DNA of 64,000 bases from an uncultured Erythrobacter sp. (GTDB lineage Bacteria > Pseudomonadota > Alphaproteobacteria > Sphingomonadales > Sphingomonadaceae). The stretch lies in NCBI GenBank assembly GCA_937969505.1, contig CALBWA010000010.1:11184-75183 (forward strand), in the 5' to 3' direction. The translations under genes were made by a program, and so were the position numbers. Positions 8,688-20,339 of the stretch are shown here, one piece after another (position 1 is the first letter of the stretch; each line of letters opens with the position of its first letter). Under the pieces are notes generated by a model that was given only the letters and a program-made list of their open reading frames with translations, searched no databases and was not told the origin of the DNA.

Positions 8688-11468
8688 CTAGATGTCGAAA
8701 CCCCAGCGGCGATAGGTTGCCGCCAGATCAGGCGCGCGGGCCAACGCATCGCGGATGTCTGCCCTTCCCCCCTCATCGCCCTGCTCGATCCGTATCAAAC
8801 CGCGCAGCAGAACCGATTCGCTCAATCCGGGGTTCAGGTTCAGGCCCGCCTCAATATCCGACAAGGCCGCATCCAACTGGCCGCTGCGCAAAAACATCAT
8901 TGCCCGGCTGTCGAGAATGGACGCTGCCTTGCCGCTGTTTTCAACCGCCCGCGTACAAACCGACAGACCCTCTTCCGGGTCAAGATTCCACGTCGCCATG
9001 TACCAGCATTTGTTGTTGAGCAGTTCGGACGTGTTCGGATCATCTGCCAGCAAATCATCAAACCGCAGCAGACCTGTGGCGGTATCGCCCGACAAAGCGT
9101 CGATCTCAGCGAGGATGTATTCCAGTTCCCGACGCACCTGCTCATCACCGTCTTCATACTCGGCAATGTCCCGCGCCTCTTCCAGCCTGCCAGCATTGAC
9201 CAATTCTCGCGCAAGATAGATGCCGCGCCAGGCTGTGGGGTCTAGCGCATAGGCTTCCTGCAGGTCGGCGACGCTTGCGTCCTGATCAAGCAGCTTGGCA
9301 TGCACGCTTGAACGTTGACCGTAATAGGCCGCTGTAGGCTCCAGCTCCAGAACCTTGTTCATGTCGGCCAGTGCACCGGCAAAATCGAACGTGTCATAAC
9401 GGAAGGCCGCTCGCTTGAGATAGCTGTTCGCCTCTTCCGGGTCATCCGCAATCAGGCGGGCGAACGCATTTTCCAGCGGTTCAAGCGCGCTGCGGTCGCT
9501 CTGCTGGGCATAGCGCCAGCGCCGCTGCAACCCCTGATCGGCCACCAGCTTGGTTTGTTCGCGGGCCAAAATGGCCGCAGCGCGGCGTTCTGCGCGGAAA
9601 TCATCCGGCGCAATTTCGCCGCCGCGACTGATCCGGGTTTCGGTAACGTTGATCCCACCATCCTGAAGCACCGCGTCAAAAATATACTGCGATCCGGCAA
9701 CTTGCGTGTCGATTTTGGGTGCGCCACGAAATTCGTAAAACGTACCGTCCTGCGGAAGCAGCGCGCGCATGCTGATCTCGGCAGCGTTGGCCTGGCCGAT
9801 GGCGACGGGAAGGTCGCGCCAATCTGGCCGTGAACGGTCAGGGGCAAAGGTCAGACCGGAAGCCATGGTCGAAAGCTTCATTTCCGCCCGGGTGCCATCA
9901 AACTCGAAGACCGGATCGGCGATCCCGGTGACGATCAAACTGGCCTCGCTATCATCGTTTCCTTTGACGATCTCGACATCGATCACGCTCATGCCCCGTG
10001 CGGACCGTTGGCCCATTTGCCGTCTGCGCTCATCGGTCAGCTTGTCAGCCTGGGCGTTAAGATTGGCACCGGATGGTCCCACAAAGGTCATTTCCATGGT
10101 GGCAAGTCCCGGCAAGTCGACACCAGCCGATGCGTCGACCGACAAAGCCATCTTCACGTCAGGATACCGCGGTAGCACTTGCTCGATCGGCTCCAGCTCT
10201 GCCCCGGCCGCTTTGATCGGCAGGACGTATTCAAAAGGCGGGACATTGCCTACCACCTTGATATTTGCCCCCAGCGATGTGCCGTCGAGATAATATTCCT
10301 GCCCATCGATCCTCGCCCGAACCAGCACGTGATCGAATGCGCCCGGGATAGGCAGAGAGATTGGCACGGCTCCACCCGCCGAGATGGATGCCAGAACAGG
10401 TTCGGCTTCAATCCCCAGATCGTGCAACATCGCGAGCAGGATCAGCGTCTTGGCTTTGCAATCGCCATACTTCTTGTCCCAGGTCGTCGCCACATCCTGA
10501 GGCAAGTAATTGCCGCCATCCAGCCCATTGAGCAGATAACGGATGTCTTCTTGCACCAGCTCCAGCGCGGCCACTGCGCGTTCCAGATCGGTTGCGTAAC
10601 CGGTTCGGATCTCCTCGATTTCCGCTTTCAGATCGTCCAGCTCGTCGAGCTGGCCACCGGTTTCGTAATAGGGCGCCATGATGCTGGACACTTCGGCCCA
10701 ATCCTCGAACGTACCCATTTCCAGCAAAGTGCCCCGGCGATAGCGCAAGGGTGCATCAAACGGCATGTCTTCTGCTTCCTCAAGCGGGAGCTTAACTTCA
10801 AGCCAATTGTAGCCACCCTGCTGCGTCACCGAAGACAATTCGTAATTGGGGCCCGCTTTGTACCGGACATCAAGATCATCGGGCCAGGAAGCCAGTATGC
10901 GCGCATAATCGGCAAATTTTTGCGGCTCGCGATAGAGGTAGCTGATGCTTTGAACGTCATCGCCCAGCGCCTGGTCCGATGTTGTCACTGAAAAGCGCAT
11001 GCGCAATTCATCGCCCACTTCCAACCCGGGCACCGCAAGTGTTGCGGTAAGCGAGCCGTCCAATATGCGCTGTTCCAACTGCTGCTCACGGCGCAGAACT
11101 TCCATCACTTCGCCCTGCTCGACCAGATCTATTGTCTCGCCATCGCGCTGGATGCTGATTTCGTGGACAATCAGATCGCCCTTATCGGGCAGCCATTGCG
11201 CAGTCAGCGTGCCCATGTTGGACAGATCGGACAGGCTACCGACGCGATAGATCAGATCGCTGTAATTCCAGTGCAGCCCTTCCTCGATGCGGATCTGCGT
11301 ATCGCTGACGATCTGGGTGTTGCTCAGCTCAGGCTCGATCTGGGACCGGTCAACCGGGGCAATCCATTCAGGAGCAGGCTCGTACAGGGGTTCATCCCCG
11401 GCATGCGCAATTGCCGAGCAAGACAACGCTACAATGGAAACAGCCGTACGCGAAAAATAAAATTTCAT
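8688..11468 (-). CDS. Secreted DUF3857 / transglutaminase-like / TPR protein
   Basis: Signal peptide MKFYFSRTAVSIVALSCSAIAHA, GDCKAK / FDHV / YLDGT Cys-His-Asp triad, and C-terminal TPR-like repeats. Confidence 0.8.
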   Translation of the reverse strand: MKFYFSRTAVSIVALSCSAIAHAGDEPLYEPAPEWIAPVDRSQIEPELSNTQIVSDTQIRIEEGLHWNYSDLIYRVGSLSDLSNMGTLTAQWLPDKGDLIVHEISIQRDGETIDLVEQGEVMEVLRREQQLEQRILDGSLTATLAVPGLEVGDELRMRFSVTTSDQALGDDVQSISYLYREPQKFADYARILASWPDDLDVRYKAGPNYELSSVTQQGGYNWLEVKLPLEEAEDMPFDAPLRYRRGTLLEMGTFEDWAEVSSIMAPYYETGGQLDELDDLKAEIEEIRTGYATDLERAVAALELVQEDIRYLLNGLDGGNYLPQDVATTWDKKYGDCKAKTLILLAMLHDLGIEAEPVLASISAGGAVPISLPIPGAFDHVLVRARIDGQEYYLDGTSLGANIKVVGNVPPFEYVLPIKAAGAELEPIEQVLPRYPDVKMALSVDASAGVDLPGLATMEMTFVGPSGANLNAQADKLTDERRRQMGQRSARGMSVIDVEIVKGNDDSEASLIVTGIADPVFEFDGTRAEMKLSTMASGLTFAPDRSRPDWRDLPVAIGQANAAEISMRALLPQDGTFYEFRGAPKIDTQVAGSQYIFDAVLQDGGINVTETRISRGGEIAPDDFRAERRAAAILAREQTKLVADQGLQRRWRYAQQSDRSALEPLENAFARLIADDPEEANSYLKRAAFRYDTFDFAGALADMNKVLELEPTAAYYGQRSSVHAKLLDQDASVADLQEAYALDPTAWRGIYLARELVNAGRLEEARDIAEYEDGDEQVRRELEYILAEIDALSGDTATGLLRFDDLLADDPNTSELLNNKCWYMATWNLDPEEGLSVCTRAVENSGKAASILDSRAMMFLRSGQLDAALSDIEAGLNLNPGLSESVLLRGLIRIEQGDEGGRADIRDALARAPDLAATYRRWGFDI

Positions 11469-11628
11469 ACAAAGGACCCGGATCGATTGGAATTGGTCCA
11501 AGAGTATATTGCAGGCCAATGTTGTCAAACAGGAAACAAGTGCAAAATGATACAATTGCATCAAGCAGATAGTCTGGCACTCAAAGCATATGCATAAATC
11601 GGCCAAGTGAAAACACGGCCAGCCGCCC

Positions 11629-13797
11629 TTAGCTACTCTTGCCGCCGGTTATCAGACGCACACCTGAATGGCTGGCAAAGAAATTCCACACCCAGTTCAT
11701 CACAACGGCCGCGCGATTGCGCGCACCGGTCAGGAAACCGACGTGGATAACCCCCCACAGCCACCAGGCAGGCGCGCCGGACATCTTCCATCTGCCAATA
11801 TCGGCCACCGCGGATTTCCGACCAATGGTGGCAAGGCTGCCACGATGTTTGTAGCGGAACGGTTGCGGCATGTCTTTGCCCAGTAATTCTGCCTGAACGA
11901 CTTTGGCAACGTAACCACCGGCCTGTTTTGCTGCTGGTGCCAATCCGGGAACCTGATCACCGTCCCATGCAGAGCTGGCAGCGGTGTCTCCGATAACAAA
12001 TACGTTTTCCGAGCCCTGAAGGCGCAGATATTCGTCTACGACTACCCGGCCCGAACCGTCGGCCTCGGCGCTCAGCCATTGTGCTGCCGGGGATGCAACA
12101 ACGCCTGCAGCCCATAGAACGGTTTCCGTGTCGATCCGCGCATCATCGCCAATTTGAACGTGGTCGCTGGCAATATGGGTCACTCGTGAATCCGTCCGTA
12201 TTTCGACCCCGAGACATTCAAGCGACGCAGCTGCCTTGTGCGACAGTTCTTCCGGGAATTGCGGCAATATCCGCGGTCCTGACTGGACCAGGACAACCCG
12301 CGCACTGGCCGGATCAATCGTGCGGAATTCTCGTGCCACGCTGACCCGGGCTAGCTCGGCAATTGCGCCTGCCAGTTCCACGCCGGTCGGCCCCGCCCCG
12401 ACGATAACGAAGTTCAGCAATCGCCGAATGCGATCTTCGTCGTTGCTGGCTTCGGCCTGTTCAAATGCGTTCAGGATCGCGCCGCGCACCGACACGCCAT
12501 CTTCAATGGTTTTGAGGCCTGGCGCGTGCTCGCCCCATTGATCCTTACCAAAATAGCTATGCGACGCCCCCGTTGCGATCACCAGCTTGTCAAACGAAAG
12601 GTGCTGGCCATCCTCGCCAAAAGTGACAATTTGTTCCTGCATGTCGATACCGGTCACACTACCCTTGATCACCCGGACATTGCCATCTTCCTTGAACAGG
12701 GAGCGGATTGGGACGGCGATATCGGCAGGGTTCAGCGTGCCCGAGGCGATTTGATAGAGCAGAGGCTGGAACAGGTGGTAATTGTGCTTGTCCACCAGCG
12801 TGACCCGCACGGGCAGGTTTTTCAGCCGATTGACTGCCGCAAGACCGCCAAAGCCGGCCCCCACCACTACAATGTGCGGCCAGCGATCTGGAATATCCTT
12901 GTACTGACGGTCGAACAGGACATTGCGTTCCATCCAGCTGCCAAACGCGCCATCAATCGACAATACGCCTGGCCCGCGCCCGTCATAGATCGCCAGCAAC
13001 AAAACGGGATACAGCGTGATGTCCGGGTGCGCGCCGGTAATGACCACTGCACCAATTGCCAGAAACATCGCAAAGGCCATAAGGCTGGTCATCCAGCCAA
13101 CAACCAGCATGCCAGCAAAAATTGCGATCAGCCAGTCCGGCAATCCGGCAAAGCTGCCAATGGGAAGCCATGTCGCGAGGGCAATGGAGGGCTCAAAACC
13201 GCCCACCGCTGCGATCATGGCCAGTGCCAGCCACAGTCTGATGCCAAGCATGACTATCGGGGCAACCTTTTCCCTCAAGAAGTCGCTGGCTGTTGCCAAT
13301 TGCGGAGCCATTGGCACTGCGCTGTTACGCATGCCGGACGAAAGAAAACGATCCAAAGAGAAGCCGCCTGGTCCATATAAGGCATACCAGGCCAGCATGG
13401 CGATCAGGAACAGATTGGTTGTGGTGGGTATATAATAGATTTGCGCGATCACCGTCAGCGTGCCCATCGCAATTGCTGCCGGTCTGGTCATCAGGCCCAG
13501 CACCAACAGAGCAGGCCCAATCAATTCAATCCCGATGCCCAATGCAGCCGCGGTTGTCGGCTCCATCCAGTCTACCGGATACTCCTGTGTCGCAAGCAAC
13601 ACTGCTGTGTCCCAATTGGTGAATTTCACCAGGCCAGACCGGATGAAGAATTGAGCAATCGCCAGCCGCACAAACAGGTCCGTAAACGGCCACATCAGCT
13701 CTGCACCGCCACTGTACAACTTTGCCCAGCGCCTCAGGGTCACCCGGACAAAAGGTGGATAGCGTTCTTCGAACAGGGGTTGCGCTTTTTTGTTCAT
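11629..13797 (-). CDS. DoxX-domain / type II NADH dehydrogenase fusion protein
   Basis: Residues ~30-290 are two DoxX-like membrane units (RLAIA.FF..SG..K, GPG.FSLD, GPG.LSID). The C-terminus is NDH-2-like (VVGAGFGG, FQPLLYQ, VGAGPTGVELAG, FVIGD, YKHRGSLATIGR). Confidence 0.85.
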   Translation of the reverse strand: MNKKAQPLFEERYPPFVRVTLRRWAKLYSGGAELMWPFTDLFVRLAIAQFFIRSGLVKFTNWDTAVLLATQEYPVDWMEPTTAAALGIGIELIGPALLVLGLMTRPAAIAMGTLTVIAQIYYIPTTTNLFLIAMLAWYALYGPGGFSLDRFLSSGMRNSAVPMAPQLATASDFLREKVAPIVMLGIRLWLALAMIAAVGGFEPSIALATWLPIGSFAGLPDWLIAIFAGMLVVGWMTSLMAFAMFLAIGAVVITGAHPDITLYPVLLLAIYDGRGPGVLSIDGAFGSWMERNVLFDRQYKDIPDRWPHIVVVGAGFGGLAAVNRLKNLPVRVTLVDKHNYHLFQPLLYQIASGTLNPADIAVPIRSLFKEDGNVRVIKGSVTGIDMQEQIVTFGEDGQHLSFDKLVIATGASHSYFGKDQWGEHAPGLKTIEDGVSVRGAILNAFEQAEASNDEDRIRRLLNFVIVGAGPTGVELAGAIAELARVSVAREFRTIDPASARVVLVQSGPRILPQFPEELSHKAAASLECLGVEIRTDSRVTHIASDHVQIGDDARIDTETVLWAAGVVASPAAQWLSAEADGSGRVVVDEYLRLQGSENVFVIGDTAASSAWDGDQVPGLAPAAKQAGGYVAKVVQAELLGKDMPQPFRYKHRGSLATIGRKSAVADIGRWKMSGAPAWWLWGVIHVGFLTGARNRAAVVMNWVWNFFASHSGVRLITGGKSS

Positions 13798-15760: not shown

Positions 15761-16438
15761 ATGAGCAACCCTGTCTATCTCGCTCTTGATGTGCCGCAAC
15801 TGGATGCGGCCAAGGCGCTGCTGGACAAGGTGAAGGCCCATATTGGCGGGGTCAAACTGGGGTTGGAATTCTTCTGCGCTCACGGTGCGCACGGCGTGCA
15901 TGAAATCGCCCACAGCGCGAACATTCCGATCTTTCTCGACCTGAAGCTGCATGACATTCCCAACACTGTTGCAGGAGCGATGCAGGCGATCCACGTGCTG
16001 GAACCGGCAATCGTGACCATCCACGCCTCCGGCGGCAGGGCGATGATGGAAGATGCCAAGGCAGCCGCAGCAGAAGGCACCAAGGTTGTCGCCGTGACCA
16101 TGCTGACCAGCATGGACGAGCGCGACCTGCAACGCACTGGCATATCCGGCACCCCACATGATCAGGTGATGCGTCTTGCCGAACTGGCCGAAGCGTCTGG
16201 ACTGGATGGCATTGTGTGTTCAGGACAGGAAGTCGCCAGCGTCCACCAGCAATGGAAGAAGGGTTTCTTTGTCGTACCCGGCCTGCGCCCTGCTGGCAGC
16301 GCGGTGGGCGACCAGAAACGCGTGGTCACGCCGCGCCAAGCGCGCGATGATGGCGCCAGCGTTCTGGTGATTGGCCGCCCGATCAGCCGCGCAGATGATC
16401 CTGCCGCTGCAGCCCGCGCGATCGAGGCAACACTCTAG
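15761..16438 (+). CDS. pyrF: Orotidine-5'-phosphate decarboxylase
   Basis: YLALD, VKLGLEF, FLDLKLHDIPNT, VVPGLRP and LVIGRPI motifs. Confidence 0.97.
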   Translation: MSNPVYLALDVPQLDAAKALLDKVKAHIGGVKLGLEFFCAHGAHGVHEIAHSANIPIFLDLKLHDIPNTVAGAMQAIHVLEPAIVTIHASGGRAMMEDAKAAAAEGTKVVAVTMLTSMDERDLQRTGISGTPHDQVMRLAELAEASGLDGIVCSGQEVASVHQQWKKGFFVVPGLRPAGSAVGDQKRVVTPRQARDDGASVLVIGRPISRADDPAAAARAIEATL

Positions 16439-16447
16439 GTTCCCATC

Positions 16448-17083
16448 ATGACCCGAACACTGATCAAGATTTGCGGGCTATCCACGCCCGAAACCGTGGA
16501 CGCAGCGGTGGATGCCGGCGCAACCCATGTGGGGCTGGTGCATTTTGAGCCAAGCCCGCGCCATATATCGTTCGAAGATGCGGCAACTCTGCGCCGCCGC
16601 GTGCCTGATCATGTGAAGGTTGTGCTGCTCACCTCCAATGCAGAGATCCCCGTGCTGGCCAGGGGGATCGAGACCGTACGGCCCGACATTGTCCAGTTCC
16701 ACGGGCGCGAGACGCCGGAATGGATTGCACTGGTGCGCAAGGAAACCGGTGTGGAGGGTTGGAAGGCGCTCGGCTTGAAGGACAAGGGCACTTTGCAGCG
16801 CAGCGCCAAATACAATGGCAAAGTGGACCGCCTGTTGTTCGATGCCCCGGCCAAGGCTTTGCCCGGCGGCAATGGCGAAACCTTTCGCTGGGACCTGCTG
16901 AACGGTCACAAACATGCGGTCGATTGGGGGCTGGCCGGCGGACTTAACCCCGGCAATGTGGCAGACGCCATCCGGGCAACCGGCACGCCTCTGGTTGATG
17001 CGTCCAGCGGTTTGGAAAGCGCACCGGGCGTGAAGGATGTGGACTTGATCCATGCCTTCTGCAAAGCGGCTCTGGAAGCCTGA
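16448..17083 (+). CDS. trpF: Phosphoribosylanthranilate isomerase
   Basis: [20 protein letters not shown] and [14 protein letters not shown] motifs. Confidence 0.96.
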
Positions 17084-17090
17084 GGTATCC

Positions 17091-18305
17091 ATGACTGAAC
17101 AACCCAATTCCTTTAAGAACCAACCGGATGAACGCGGCCATTTTGGCGAATTTGGCGGGCGTTATGTCGCCGAAACGCTGATGCCGTTGATCCTTGATCT
17201 TGAGAAAGAGTATCGCGCCGCTCAGGCTGACCCGGCCTTCAAGGCCGAGTTCGATGATCTGCTCGAACATTATGTCGGCCGCCCTTCCCCGCTTTATTTT
17301 GCAGAGCGGCTGACCGAAGCGCTGGGCGGCGCGCAAATCTGGTTCAAGCGCGACGAGTTGAATCACACCGGCGCGCACAAGATCAACAATTGCATCGGGC
17401 AGATCCTGCTCGCGATCCGCATGGGCAAAACCCGCATTATTGCCGAGACCGGCGCTGGCCAGCACGGCGTTGCCACCGCCACAGTTTGCGCGCGCTTTGG
17501 CCTGCCTTGCGTGATCTACATGGGCGCAGAAGATGTGAAGCGGCAATCGCCCAATGTCTTCCGCATGAAATTGCTGGGTGCAGAAGTTGTCCCCGTCACC
17601 AGCGGCGGCGCGACGTTGAAAGATGCCATGAACGAAGGGCTGCGCGACTGGGTCGCCAATGTGCATGACACATTCTACATCATCGGCACCGCTGCCGGAC
17701 CGCACCCTTACCCTGAACTGGTGCGCGATTTTCAAAGCGTGATTGGCAAGGAAGCGCGCGCGCAAATGCTCGCCCGCGCTGGCCGTCTGCCCGATCTGCT
17801 GATCGCCTGCATTGGTGGGGGATCAAATGCGCTGGGTCTGTTCCACCCTTTCCTAGATGATCCCGATGTAAAAATGCTGGGTGTCGAAGCAGCCGGACAT
17901 GGCCTCGATTGTGATGAGCACGCCGCCAGTCTGCTCGGCGGTGTTCCGGGCATCCTCCACGGCAACAAGACCTATCTGCTGCAGGACGAGGACGGTCAAA
18001 TCACCGAAGGCCACTCGATCAGCGCAGGTCTGGATTACCCCGGTATCGGGCCAGAGCATGCATGGCTGAAAGAATCGGGCCGGGTCGAATACACCGCTGT
18101 GACCGATGAAGAGGCGCTGGACGGGTTCCAGCTGCTGTGCCGGACCGAGGGAATTATCCCCGCGCTTGAGCCCAGCCATGCCATTGCTGCCGTTGCGAAA
18201 CGCGCCAAGGAAATGCCCGAAGATTCGATCATCTTGATGAATCTGTGCGGCCGCGGCGACAAGGACATCTTCACCGTGGCGGAGAAGCTGGGAGTGGAGA
18301 TTTGA
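17091..18305 (+). CDS. trpB: Tryptophan synthase beta chain
   Basis: [11 protein letters not shown] (PLP lysine), AETGAGQHG and [10 protein letters not shown] motifs. Confidence 0.98.
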
Positions 18306-18426
18306 AACCCCTCGCTCGTCATTGCGAGCGCAGCGAAGCAATCCAGAGCAAAGCACGACACGCCTCTGGATTGCCGCGTCGCTTCGCTCCTCGCAATGAC
18401 ACCAAATCGAAGCTGGGAGTGGAGAT
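18284..18426. repeat. 18-bp direct repeat GAAGCTGGGAGTGGAGAT at 18284-18301 and 18409-18426 (duplicated trpB 3' end)
   Basis: Both copies were read directly from the sequence and are identical over 18 nt. Confidence 0.9.
18318..18400. repeat. 83-bp REP/RPE-like palindromic element
   Basis: Outer stem GTCATTGCGAG / CTCGCAATGAC (11 bp) and inner stem GCAATCCAGA / TCTGGATTGC (10 bp). Resembles the GTCATTGCGAG-type palindromic repeats I recall from alphaproteobacteria. Confidence 0.8.
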
Positions 18427-18698
18427 GTGAGTCGTCGGCGAAATCGCTCTCGAAACAACCGAAGATCCGAGCGAAAAACTGCCGCAAGAACAATCAGAAT
18501 CTTTGGTTGGAAGCTACCCTACAAACCTCGCCTTGGCCTATTTTGGCTGACTTTCGGATTCCCTATTTTCTAGGTGTAAGATTGGCTTTCTCCGCAGCTG
18601 CAGATAAGCAGATCGACCTTAGCTATATATTGATATGGGCTGCCATGATGACGATCACATTTGCAGTCTTAGCAACATTCACAAAGTTATTGAAATGA
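18427..18698 (+). pseudogene. Small membrane protein gene split by a one-base frameshift (tentative)
   Basis: ORF 18427-18573 (Arg-rich, then hydrophobic) ends at TAG. The -1 frame continues as a hydrophobic segment to TGA 18696-18698, which overlaps the trpA ATG. Confidence 0.45.
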
Positions 18699-19468
18699 CC
18701 CGTTTCTCCTCCGCCTTTTCCGCCCCGGCGCTCGTTTGTTTCATCACCGCTGGTGATGGAGACACAGCGGCCAATCTTGACGCTTTGGTCGACGGCGGTG
18801 CCGATGTGATCGAGCTGGGCATGCCTTTCACCGATCCGATGGCCGATGGCCCCGCCATTCAGGCCGCCAATCTGCGCAGTCTGGGCGCGGGTACGACCAC
18901 CGCCGATGTTCTCCAAATCGCGACCGACTTCCGCGCTCGCCACCCTGACATGCCGCTGGTCTTGATGGGCTATGCCAATCCGATGATCCGTCGCGGGCCC
19001 GAATGGTTTGCCGATGCGGCCAAGAAGGCTGGCGTTGATGGCGTCATCTGCGTCGATATTCCGCCCGAGGAAGACGAAGAGCTTGGCCCTGCCCTGCGCG
19101 ATGCAGGGATTGCACCCATTCGCCTTGCCACGCCCACCACCGATGCCGCGCGCTTGCCGCAGGTTCTGAGCGGTTCTGAAGGCTTCGTCTATTACGTCTC
19201 GGTCGCCGGTATCACCGGCAAGCAACAGGCCGCCCAGGCCAGCATTGAAGACAATGTCGCCCGCATCAAACAATCAACCGATCTGCCCGTGGCAGTCGGC
19301 TTTGGCGTGCGAACACCGGAACAGGCCGCTGACATTGCCCGCGTCGCCGATGGTGTTGTGGTCGGCTCTGCACTGGTCGAAATTGTCGGCGAATTTGGCA
19401 AAGATGCCCCGGCCAAGCTAAGAGAGCTGACATCTGCCCTTGCCGACGCGGTCCATTCCGCGCGCTGA
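18695..19468 (+). CDS. trpA: Tryptophan synthase alpha chain
   Basis: FITAGD, IELGMPFTDPMADGP.IQ, YYVSVAGITG and VGFGV motifs. Confidence 0.98.
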   Translation: MTRFSSAFSAPALVCFITAGDGDTAANLDALVDGGADVIELGMPFTDPMADGPAIQAANLRSLGAGTTTADVLQIATDFRARHPDMPLVLMGYANPMIRRGPEWFADAAKKAGVDGVICVDIPPEEDEELGPALRDAGIAPIRLATPTTDAARLPQVLSGSEGFVYYVSVAGITGKQQAAQASIEDNVARIKQSTDLPVAVGFGVRTPEQAADIARVADGVVVGSALVEIVGEFGKDAPAKLRELTSALADAVHSAR

Positions 19469-19490
19469 TACGCATTAACAGGATGATTGC

Positions 19491-20339
19491 ATGAACTGGT
19501 TCACCCGCGTCCGCAATTCGATCGGCTGGCTGCCCAAGCGCACCAGCGAGAAGGATTTGTGGGTCAAATGCTCTTCCTGCCAGGAAATGCTGTTCGAGCA
19601 GGAGTATGAGGAAAATCTCAACGTCTGCCCGCGGTGCGAACACCATGGCCGGATCGGTGCCGATGCGCGGCTCGCGATGATCCTCGATGAAGGGTTCGAA
19701 CTGCTCCAGCAGCCCGAAGTGCGCGAAGACCCGCTGAAATTCAAAGATCAGAAGAAATACACCGAACGGTTGAAAGCCGCTCGGGCGAAAAACCCGCACC
19801 GCGATGCGTTCAGTGTCGGTTCGGGTGACATCATGGGCAATCCGGCGGTCGTCGGGGTGCAGGACTTCGGCTTTATGGGCGGATCGATGGGGATGGCCGT
19901 CGGCACAGCGTTCTGCGCCGGGGCCGAGCGGGCGCTGACCCGCAAATGCGCCTATATTGTCGTCACCGCTGCTGGTGGTGCACGGATGCAGGAAGGCATT
20001 CTCAGCCTGATGCAAATGCCCAAGGCGACCGTGATGACACGCCGACTGAAAGAGGCTGGCCTGCCCTATATCGTGGTGCTGACCGACCCGACCACGGGCG
20101 GTGTTACCGCCAGCTACGCCATGTTGGGCGATATCCAGATTGCCGAGCCGGGCGCTTTGATCGGCTTTGCCGGACAGCGGGTGATCAAGGATACGATCCG
20201 CGAGAACCTGCCCGAAGGTTTCCAGCGCGCCGAATATCTGCACAAGCACGGCATGGTCGACATGGTCGTGCCGCGCAGCGAGATGAAGGAAACACTGGCC
20301 TCGCTGCTTGAATATCTCGCCCCGCAAAAGGCAGCCTGA
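19491..20339 (+). CDS. accD: Acetyl-CoA carboxylase carboxyltransferase beta subunit
   Basis: Zn finger C-x2-C...C-x2-[16 protein letters not shown] and PTTGGVTAS motifs. Confidence 0.97.

Follow-up and report, generated by a model that had tools for sequence, protein, structure and literature searches.

Introduction

The trpB-trpA gene pair is a textbook case of translational coupling. In Escherichia coli, as Oppenheim and Yanofsky are said to have described in 1980, both trpB-trpA and trpE-trpD are translationally coupled by overlapping stop and start codons, so that translation of the second gene hinges on termination in the first. Rickettsia palindromic elements (RPEs), reportedly described by Ogata and coworkers in 2000, are palindromic repeats tolerated in translated sequence, the frame staying open. 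In this work, we analyzed the junction of trpB and trpA (genes of tryptophan synthase beta and alpha, respectively) within a 64-kb stretch of contig CALBWA010000010.1 (the whole stretch, 64,000 nucleotides long, is hereafter called the window), where the end of trpB is duplicated around an element resembling the repetitive extragenic palindromes (REPs). Unlike RPEs, which lie in frame inside host proteins, this repeat makes its own mini open reading frame (ORF) between genes, where stop/start phasing matters; trpB ends normally (…KLGVEI stop), and the element stands downstream, in a separate frame.

Among the described REPs, those tagged with CGTC come into consideration. In the account by Di Nocera, De Gregorio & Rocco (2013, PMC3733652), they carry a CGTC/TGTC tag, A-T at the first stem positions and a CCA tail, form mostly head-to-head dimers (often heterodimers), and occur mainly in alpha-proteobacteria; the genomes of the supplementary file include Erythrobacter litoralis and Novosphingobium aromaticivorans. 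The same account names no dedicated transposase, gives the families CGTC-1 to CGTC-4 a unit stem of 8-9 bp and a loop of 4-5 nt, and equates some CGTC REPs with RPE-4 and RPE-6 of Rickettsia. The window element is like them in its outer tags, inner CCA/TGG and a dimer hairpin of unequal halves, as well as in its extragenic location 3' of a coding region, its occurrence in alpha-proteobacteria including Sphingomonadales, and the lack of a dedicated transposase. It differs from CGTC-1 to CGTC-4 in the self-stem of the unit (5 bp), which results in one long hairpin, and its family, unlike CGTC REPs as described there, is found on contigs of 35-72% GC and on viral or gene transfer agent (GTA)-like contigs. 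With the REPIN/RAYT system, i.e., REP doublets forming hairpins and REP-associated tyrosine transposases (Bertels & Rainey 2011, PMC3116915; Nunvar 2010, PMC2817692), it shares two inverted REP units, a hairpin of ~80-90 nt and a non-autonomous, dispersed character; unlike there, its tag is CGTC and not GTAG, no RAYT was found near 240 copies, and the family is sparse in these loci, with one copy in the 64 kb of the window.

Hypervariability of the trpB-trpA junction

The results presented below are probably best read jointly: the trpB-trpA junction is a hypervariable slot, which in the window holds a REP dimer, a ~90-codon frameshifted gene and a duplicated trpB tail, and which is apparently crossed by a translational relay. 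The window derives from a genome of Erythrobacter-like (Sphingomonadales) type, whose operon reads trpF-trpB-(389 bp)-trpA-accD-folC (Table 1).

For the comparison, one genome per species was scanned, which gave 80 Sphingomonadales loci, 77 of them with both trpB and trpA. The TrpB proteins of the 80 loci are 84-99% identical to that of the window, for which an exact-protein look-up returned no identical protein on record. The trpB-trpA gap ranges from -4 (overlap) to 1417 nt, with a median of 235 nt (77 loci), and the median trpA-accD distance is 11 nt. About 14 loci represent empty sites with the bare overlap …GGAGTGGAGATGTGACCCGCCTC…. These empty alleles show the same gene pair and the same 4-nt overlap as E. 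coli, unlike which the coupling is stretched in the occupied alleles to up to four extra ORFs, some of them made of repeat DNA.

Occupied slots usually hold a single ORF of 56-182 codons that starts at an xTGA overlap with trpB and ends with ATGA on trpA; such ORFs typically encode 1-4 predicted transmembrane helices and have a GC content below that of their surroundings. Altogether, the slot contents are diverse and comprise mostly orphan ORFs for small membrane proteins, REPs and a DUF559 element. Apart from DUF559, the slot ORF families count 2-4 members, with 47 singletons, and only DUF6980, DUF1348 and DUF559 were recognized by Pfam. One family, of 61 aa, is always located between trpB and trpA with 4-nt overlaps, and it was also seen between PALP and Trp_syntA in two further genomes, L321 and L322 (PF00291, PALP, in the trpB homologs and PF00290 in the trpA homologs). 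Its 23 clusters contain members of exactly 61 aa only and, because its dN/dS equals 0.17-0.19, we conclude that the slot cassettes are real protein genes.

The turnover of the slot is fast, because the locus with a near-identical TrpB (99% identity; L001, uncultured Erythrobacter, CANLZP010000002.1, 10001-12500) carries a different insert, which lacks a REP and consists of an unrelated cassette encoding 170 aa and four predicted transmembrane helices. Its gene order matches that of the window from 7.3 to 29.2 kb and, at the DNA level, trpB and trpA (17091-19468 in the window) are 93-96% identical, while the flanks reach about 80% (pyrF, trpF and accD ~75-85%). This contrast is suggestive of trpBA flanks that have recently recombined around cassettes of different kinds. 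Raised trpBA identity was also considered as a proof of such an event (z = 3.5 for this pair) and rejected, as trpBA is generally above its flanks and other pairs deviate equally.

The original prediction supposed that this junction may be a hotspot of cassette capture and proposed an alignment across relatives. The comparison of the 77 loci revealed a variable junction with existing empty-site alleles, and together with the unrelated insert of L001 it strongly bears out that supposition. No account of a trpB-trpA hotspot in sphingomonads was found in the literature searched. What is new here is the hypervariable slot in the Sphingomonadales trpB-trpA overlap, the persistence of inserts as links of a coupling chain, and a duplicated gene end that restores a ribosome-binding site.

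Duplicated trpB tail and reading frames of the window

The 18-nt sequence GAAGCTGGGAGTGGAGAT is present exactly at 18284-18301 and 18409-18426, i.e., with starts 125 nt apart, and with the stop codons included the repeat has 22 nt with one mismatch (…GATTTGA vs. …GATGTGA). In the whole window, three matches with ≤3 mismatches were found (two being the exact copies) against 0.10 expected, and 0 shuffles gave as many. The trpB-ending 22-mer (≤3 mismatches) is present in 30 relatives, in each as a single copy at the true trpB end. The repeat is a duplicated trpB 3' end: trpB is completed by the left copy, which has the variant of L001 (GATTTGA), and the right one shows the commonest junction form (GATGTGA).

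TTG 18302 overlaps the trpB stop codon (TTGA; its ORF is listed as 18245-18430) and opens a 42-codon frame that crosses the palindrome, shares the trpB frame over the right repeat copy (…KLGVEM stop) and ends with TGA 18428-18430, overlapping GTG 18427. Thus, the exact recurrence of the trpB tail, the 83-bp nested palindrome between its copies and the bridging ORF overlapping both the trpB TGA and the next GTG, all described earlier from the letters of the window, were confirmed. The proposal that the duplication restores a ribosome-binding site also agrees with the sequence, as GGGAG/GGAG and the GTGA overlap of the right copy stand before the ORF starting at GTG 18427. No Shine-Dalgarno motif of its own was seen upstream of the trpA ATG, and neither promoter-like nor terminator-like sites were predicted in 17900-19600.

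Coupling chains across the slot

A chain was defined as a series of ORFs that begins at the trpB stop and reaches the trpA start through allowed overlaps alone, with shuffled gap interiors as a control. When junctions of -4 or -1 only were allowed, 34 of the 63 occupied slots were chained, compared with 91 of 1260 shuffles (7%); adding -8 gave 39/63 vs. 96/1260, and the range from -8 to +10 gave 48/63 vs. 142/630. Unbroken overlap chains are therefore present in 54-62% of the occupied slots, and the chainless slots mostly carry the DUF559 element or a conserved ~190-nt module before trpA. Because 34/63 slots are chained against 91/1260 shuffles, we conclude that the coupling chains are under selection. 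According to PMC10666635, coupling by termination and reinitiation requires overlaps or very short distances.

Where REPs are present in the slot, they are bridged by ORFs with phase-correct overlaps at both ends, of 34 codons in L050, 44 in L039, 37 in L042, 43 in L048, 54 in L016, 24 in L053 and 42 in the window. Stacked cassettes abut directly in L028 and L042. The junctions of the window chain are -4, -4, +8 and -4. Concerning the proposed relay of ribosomes toward trpA, one part stood: the 42-codon frame bridges the palindrome, and chains are enriched in relatives. The other part did not, as the next ORF stops at 18573, 121 nt (18574-18694) before the trpA ATG.

Characterization of the palindromic element

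The outer arms (18318-18328/18390-18400) and the inner arms (18338-18348/18364-18374) of the palindrome are each 11/11 complementary, with a middle stem at 18332-18337/18383-18388 and a loop at 18349-18363. Folded as RNA, the element reaches -44.6 kcal/mol (z = -6.3 vs. shuffles). The stem of each unit taken alone is only 5 bp long (ATTGC/GCAAT), with a loop of 12-18 nt. A permissive Rfam scan of 17800-19000 gave chance matches only (best E = 0.052, far below the gathering score), and the palindrome was recognized neither as an intrinsic terminator (site prediction in 17900-19600) nor as a known RNA family (Rfam).

No second copy is present in the window. The pattern GTCATTGCGAG-N40-70-CTCGCAATGAC matched at least 120 contigs in the metagenome collection and at least 120 in the viral one, and together they yielded at least 272 distinct copies, on contigs of 35-72% GC. 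Among the matches listed, the inner GCAATC…GATTGC stem is present in 244 of 272 copies, usually running on as CCAG, and the left linker of the window, CGCAGCGAA, is the second commonest variant. In a set of 128 copies, GTC is preceded by C (84 copies) or T (37 copies), and GAC is followed by G or A in 116. In one Novosphingobium resinovorum replicon, the family occupies at least 40 places, and the matches listed for the 12 plasmid records all fall outside annotated features. Copies are also located between trpA and accD (L029, L075) and at other sites, and a canonical CGTC dimer occupies the same slot in L050. Literature searches with the arm sequence and with peptide translations of the repeat found nothing relevant.

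Several further observations concern the distribution of this family. Viral-class contigs (IMG/VR, L201-L320) are rich in it, and the neighboring genes resemble those for GTA/phage tail, portal and host-specificity proteins. It also forms tandem arrays: in L109 (3969-5019), eight copies recur every 121 nt, separated by near-identical spacers of 33 nt, and in L143 (1897-2223) three copies recur every 124 nt. In another marine metagenome (run X21), exact 30-mers of the arms (18320-18337, 18374-18391) reach word depths of ~2,700 and ~630 and the rest of the locus is absent, therefore near-identical arms must be present in many other genomes there.

The window element has the tags CGTC (18315-18318) and GACA (18398-18401, the reverse complement of TGTC), A-T at the first stem positions and a CCA tail (GCAATCCAG). 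Judging by its sequence, it seems to be an ordinary member of the known, very widespread class of CGTC/TGTC-tagged REP dimers. As its unit stem falls short of the 8-9 bp given for the four families, we have filed it as a putative variant of the CGTC super-family, with no assignment to CGTC-1 to CGTC-4. The suggested REP/RPE-like nature fits well with the CGTC tag, the inner CCA/TGG, the extragenic location and the many copies elsewhere, all the more that the CGTC super-family includes some RPEs of Rickettsia.

In the original prediction, a REP/RPE-like element or cassette was inserted with a target duplication. Read as classical transposition, this would mean that a REP, REPIN or miniature inverted-repeat transposable element (MITE)-like element entered the trpB end by a staggered cut and that the 18-bp repeat is its target-site duplication. 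An exact 18-nt direct repeat does bracket a palindromic element of a clearly dispersed family, but in 128 other family copies the longest repeat between the 45-nt flanks is distributed as in the shuffled control (mode 5 nt), with only the tandem arrays (L109, L143, L135) and the window as exceptions. Moreover, the repeat does not abut the palindrome, standing 16 nt to its left and 8 nt to its right. Since typical family copies have no flanking duplication, we do not regard the 18-nt repeat as a footprint of transposition. IS200/IS605-type enzymes, the sole transposases proposed for REPs, are not known to make target duplications. The Y1/TnpA-REP transposase expected near the copies did not appear either: clustering of 2800 ORFs within 2 kb of 240 family copies revealed no recurrent transposase (only GTA/phage structural genes and spurious high-GC ORFs), and PMC3733652 names none for CGTC REPs. 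Insertion with a target duplication is thus an unlikely explanation. The 20-nt flank repeat of L135, considered as a second duplication of a gene end, was rejected, being a tandem copy of a REP with its flank.

Origin of the duplication and a proposed mechanism

Traces of similar events were found at other loci. In L042, a REP is followed by a decayed trpB tail of 34 nt and then by a cassette, and the L025 homolog of the small gene of the window is preceded by a REP and a tail relic, GAAAAACTGAGAGTGGTGCTTTGA, in which 18/24 positions (counted by eye) match the trpB tail. Relics of the trpA head adjoin REPs or the DUF559 element in L016, L025, L021 and L008. It would seem, then, that junction sequences have been repeatedly duplicated as DNA entered the overlap; in the window, the tail duplication alone is demonstrable.

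We propose that the classical 4-nt trpB/trpA overlap became a hypervariable slot in this group, being either empty or filled with one to several small genes. Ribosomes finishing trpB would reinitiate at TTG 18302, open the hairpin (-45 kcal/mol) in the course of translation, and stop at the start codon that follows, so that translation would be relayed down the operon. One link is imperfect in the window: after the stop at 18573, translation may restart at TTG 18582 and then reach ATGA on trpA. The right repeat copy provides the small gene with the Shine-Dalgarno motif and the GTGA overlap that it presumably held when it abutted trpB directly. The duplication would most likely come from duplicative recombination or repair at the junction; unequal or Campbell-type recombination between alleles followed by a deletion, or duplicative repair, could be the route. 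It would have been kept because, at an overlap, only an insertion that duplicates the shared bases leaves trpB at full length and the following gene with its ribosome-binding site. REPs may sit at the joints or colonize the dispensable DNA made there, and the module composed of the trpB end, the REP and the duplicated tail could be passed on by homologous recombination, with the gene behind it swapped.

A more far-reaching proposal, which we put forward tentatively and consider rather doubtful, is that the trpB/trpA overlap constitutes an active, integrase-free site of cassette exchange, where genes are captured by junction duplication, REPs stand at the joints and inserts stay as open, phase-correct links. 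The DUF559 (Vsr-like) endonuclease, found only in the trpB-trpA gap in the 80 loci examined, might start the process.

Site-specific integration of cassettes, of the integron or phage att type, with the trpB end as a duplicated attachment core and the palindrome as a recombination site, could also be considered. The slot is similar to integron arrays in its small, mostly orphan ORFs, rapid turnover between close relatives and occasional palindromes between them; its diverse orphan ORFs are arrayed with boundaries that fall sharply at start/stop overlaps, trpA-head and trpB-tail relics lie beside palindromes in several genomes, and the cassette attached to the module of a REP and a tail varies with the lineage. 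However, unlike in integrons, neither an integrase nor attI or an attC consensus was found among the neighbors (the housekeeping genes pyrF, trpF, accD and folC; no search aimed at core-site motifs was made), and the cassettes appear to be expressed by translational coupling within an essential operon. In addition, the joints carry palindromes of different REP families, palindromes and repeats are both absent from most cassettes, and stacked cassettes can abut directly. Exchange by homologous recombination via the conserved flanks, trpB and trpA, is enough to explain the pattern. Taken together, these points make a dedicated integration system improbable.

It is highly improbable that the 42-codon ORF is a genuine gene whose peptide, and not its translation, matters. 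The ORF is open and overlaps its neighbors in the correct phase at both ends, but its sequence is one frame of a repeat family that occurs in all orientations and contexts, on contigs ranging from 35 to 72% GC, and the bridging ORFs at other loci are unrelated in sequence.

The assembly was checked against other sequence data. Of the words sampled from 18150-18850, 71% are present in marine metagenome run X1, whose Logan contigs match 18317-18396 and 18371-18725 without a difference. A single 1109-nt contig of unrelated runs (X3-X6) contains the trpB end (1 difference in 64 nt), a slightly longer palindrome, and then CTCGCAATGACACCAAATCGAAGCTGGGAGTGGAGATGTGAG (3 differences from the window junction), followed by 239 nt of unrelated sequence and trpA; in that contig, the junction of a REP and a tail stands before an ORF different from that of the window. 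As the X1 contigs are exact and the X3-X6 contig repeats the same order, an assembly artefact is very unlikely. That a repeat mis-join produced the duplicated tail and the palindrome is scarcely credible even if the window comes from a metagenome or short-read assembly and its left junction (18281-18316) is the only stretch with no exact independent contig, since L042 and L048 carry older, decayed forms of the same layout.

The reading of the locus as a hypervariable slot with a duplicated tail and a relay must be weighed against several facts. Besides the status of the left junction just mentioned, the REP family is sparse in the group (a single copy in the 64 kb of the window and few in 1.6 Mb of the flanks of relatives), and a recognizable duplicated trpB tail is present in only 2-3 of ~8 REP-containing slots. 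An open, in-phase 42-codon frame may occur at this locus by chance with an estimated probability of ~0.1, therefore the argument for a relay rests on the comparative pattern. Both the reinitiation and the melting of the hairpin are presumed from sequence features, the frameshift at 18566-18573 breaks the relay, and a restart at TTG 18582 (after AGGTG, nine bases past the stop), leading to ATGA on trpA, would be conjectural. Finally, 18302-18319 was tried as a relic of the trpA head and rejected (position weight matrix score of -7.4 bits vs. 5-19 bits for true trpA heads), and therefore an origin by fusion of two alleles has no support for the window.

Gene content of the locus and accompanying elements

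Table 1. Features of the trpB-trpA region of the window.
Feature	Position	Strand	Remarks
trpF	16448-17083		ORF list
trpB (tryptophan synthase beta)	17091-18305	+	404 codons, stop TGA 18303-18305; ORF list
trpB tail (left repeat copy)	18284-18305	+	Ends …E K L G V E I stop; contains GGGAG/GGAG
Bridging frame	18302-18430	+	42 codons, from TTG 18302 to TGA 18428-18430
CGTC-tagged REP-like head-to-head dimer	18315-18401	.	CGTC tag 18315-18318, palindrome 18318-18400, GACA right end
Duplicated trpB tail (right repeat copy)	18409-18430	+	Gives a Shine-Dalgarno motif and a GTGA stop/start overlap to the next ORF
Small membrane-protein gene, N-terminal part	18427-18573	+	48 codons, stop TAG 18571-18573
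Small membrane-protein gene, C-terminal part	18582-18698	+	Frame of ORF 18396-18698; TGA overlaps the trpA ATG (ATGA)
trpA (tryptophan synthase alpha)	18695-19468	+	ORF list, homologs of relatives
accD	19491-20339		ORF list
folC	After accD		ORF list

The small gene located behind the repeat carries a 1-nt frameshift near 18566-18573, because its 90-aa product, read through the shift, aligns end to end and across the break with a 92-aa ORF of L025 (38% identity, E = 2e-24 in a one-sequence target set). The region 18427-18694 has 45% GC, compared with 58% for the window. A homolog search with the corrected 90-aa ORF returned no candidates, and Pfam recognized nothing in it. The 100-aa ORF of L048, considered as another homolog, was rejected, as no significant similarity was found. 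The frameshift adjoins a run of four T (18560-18585), and the Logan contig of X1 is identical there, although it is not fully independent if the window was assembled from X1. The frameshift could represent real pseudogenization or a homopolymer error common to both assemblies.

Two other components of the slot were distinguished in the relatives. A DUF559 gene (PF04480, Vsr-like PD-(D/E)xK nuclease) with inverted repeats of the CCCTCTCCCCTTCAGGGGAGAGGGTTGGGAGAGGGG type is present in the trpB-trpA gap of 13/77 loci (L021, L024, L032, L035, L044, L047, L055, L056, L059, L063, L074, L075 and L076; ~11240-12080 in each), corresponding to 14 ORF entries in the BLAST cluster and 13 loci by tblastn, with no occurrence elsewhere in the 1.6 Mb of flanks. 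Either this element is specific to the junction (homing?), or it has resided in the slot since ancient times. A conserved non-coding module of ~190 nt, CTGTCCTACAC … TTGGACAGTGTAACAC.CGGTCCATGTCTC…, lies directly 5' of trpA in L008, L009, L025, L035, L040 and L056, with a variant in L013, L014 and L015, in slots without a clean overlap chain. It had no Rfam match (L025 11150-12150 scanned, chance matches only) and could be a promoter, a leader or a MITE.

The remaining junctions of the operon are compact in the window, with 9 nt between pyrF and trpF (16438-16448) and 7 nt between trpF and trpB (17083-17091). In the relatives (L001-L080), the pyrF-trpF distance is very variable (-1 to 2759 nt, median 539), and the trpF-trpB distance exceeds 100 nt in 24/74 loci.

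Conclusions

Foreign DNA, including small genes, selfish palindromes and an endonuclease gene, has been repeatedly placed exactly in the trpB-trpA overlap of Sphingomonadales, and the survivors show which layouts are tolerated; where the overlap was split, the shared bases were duplicated. The slot is therefore a natural data set for the rules of termination and reinitiation, and the relay proposed here offers a mechanism by which a REP may live inside an operon without polar effects. The slot yields fast-turning small membrane proteins under purifying selection, tied to the expression of tryptophan synthase.

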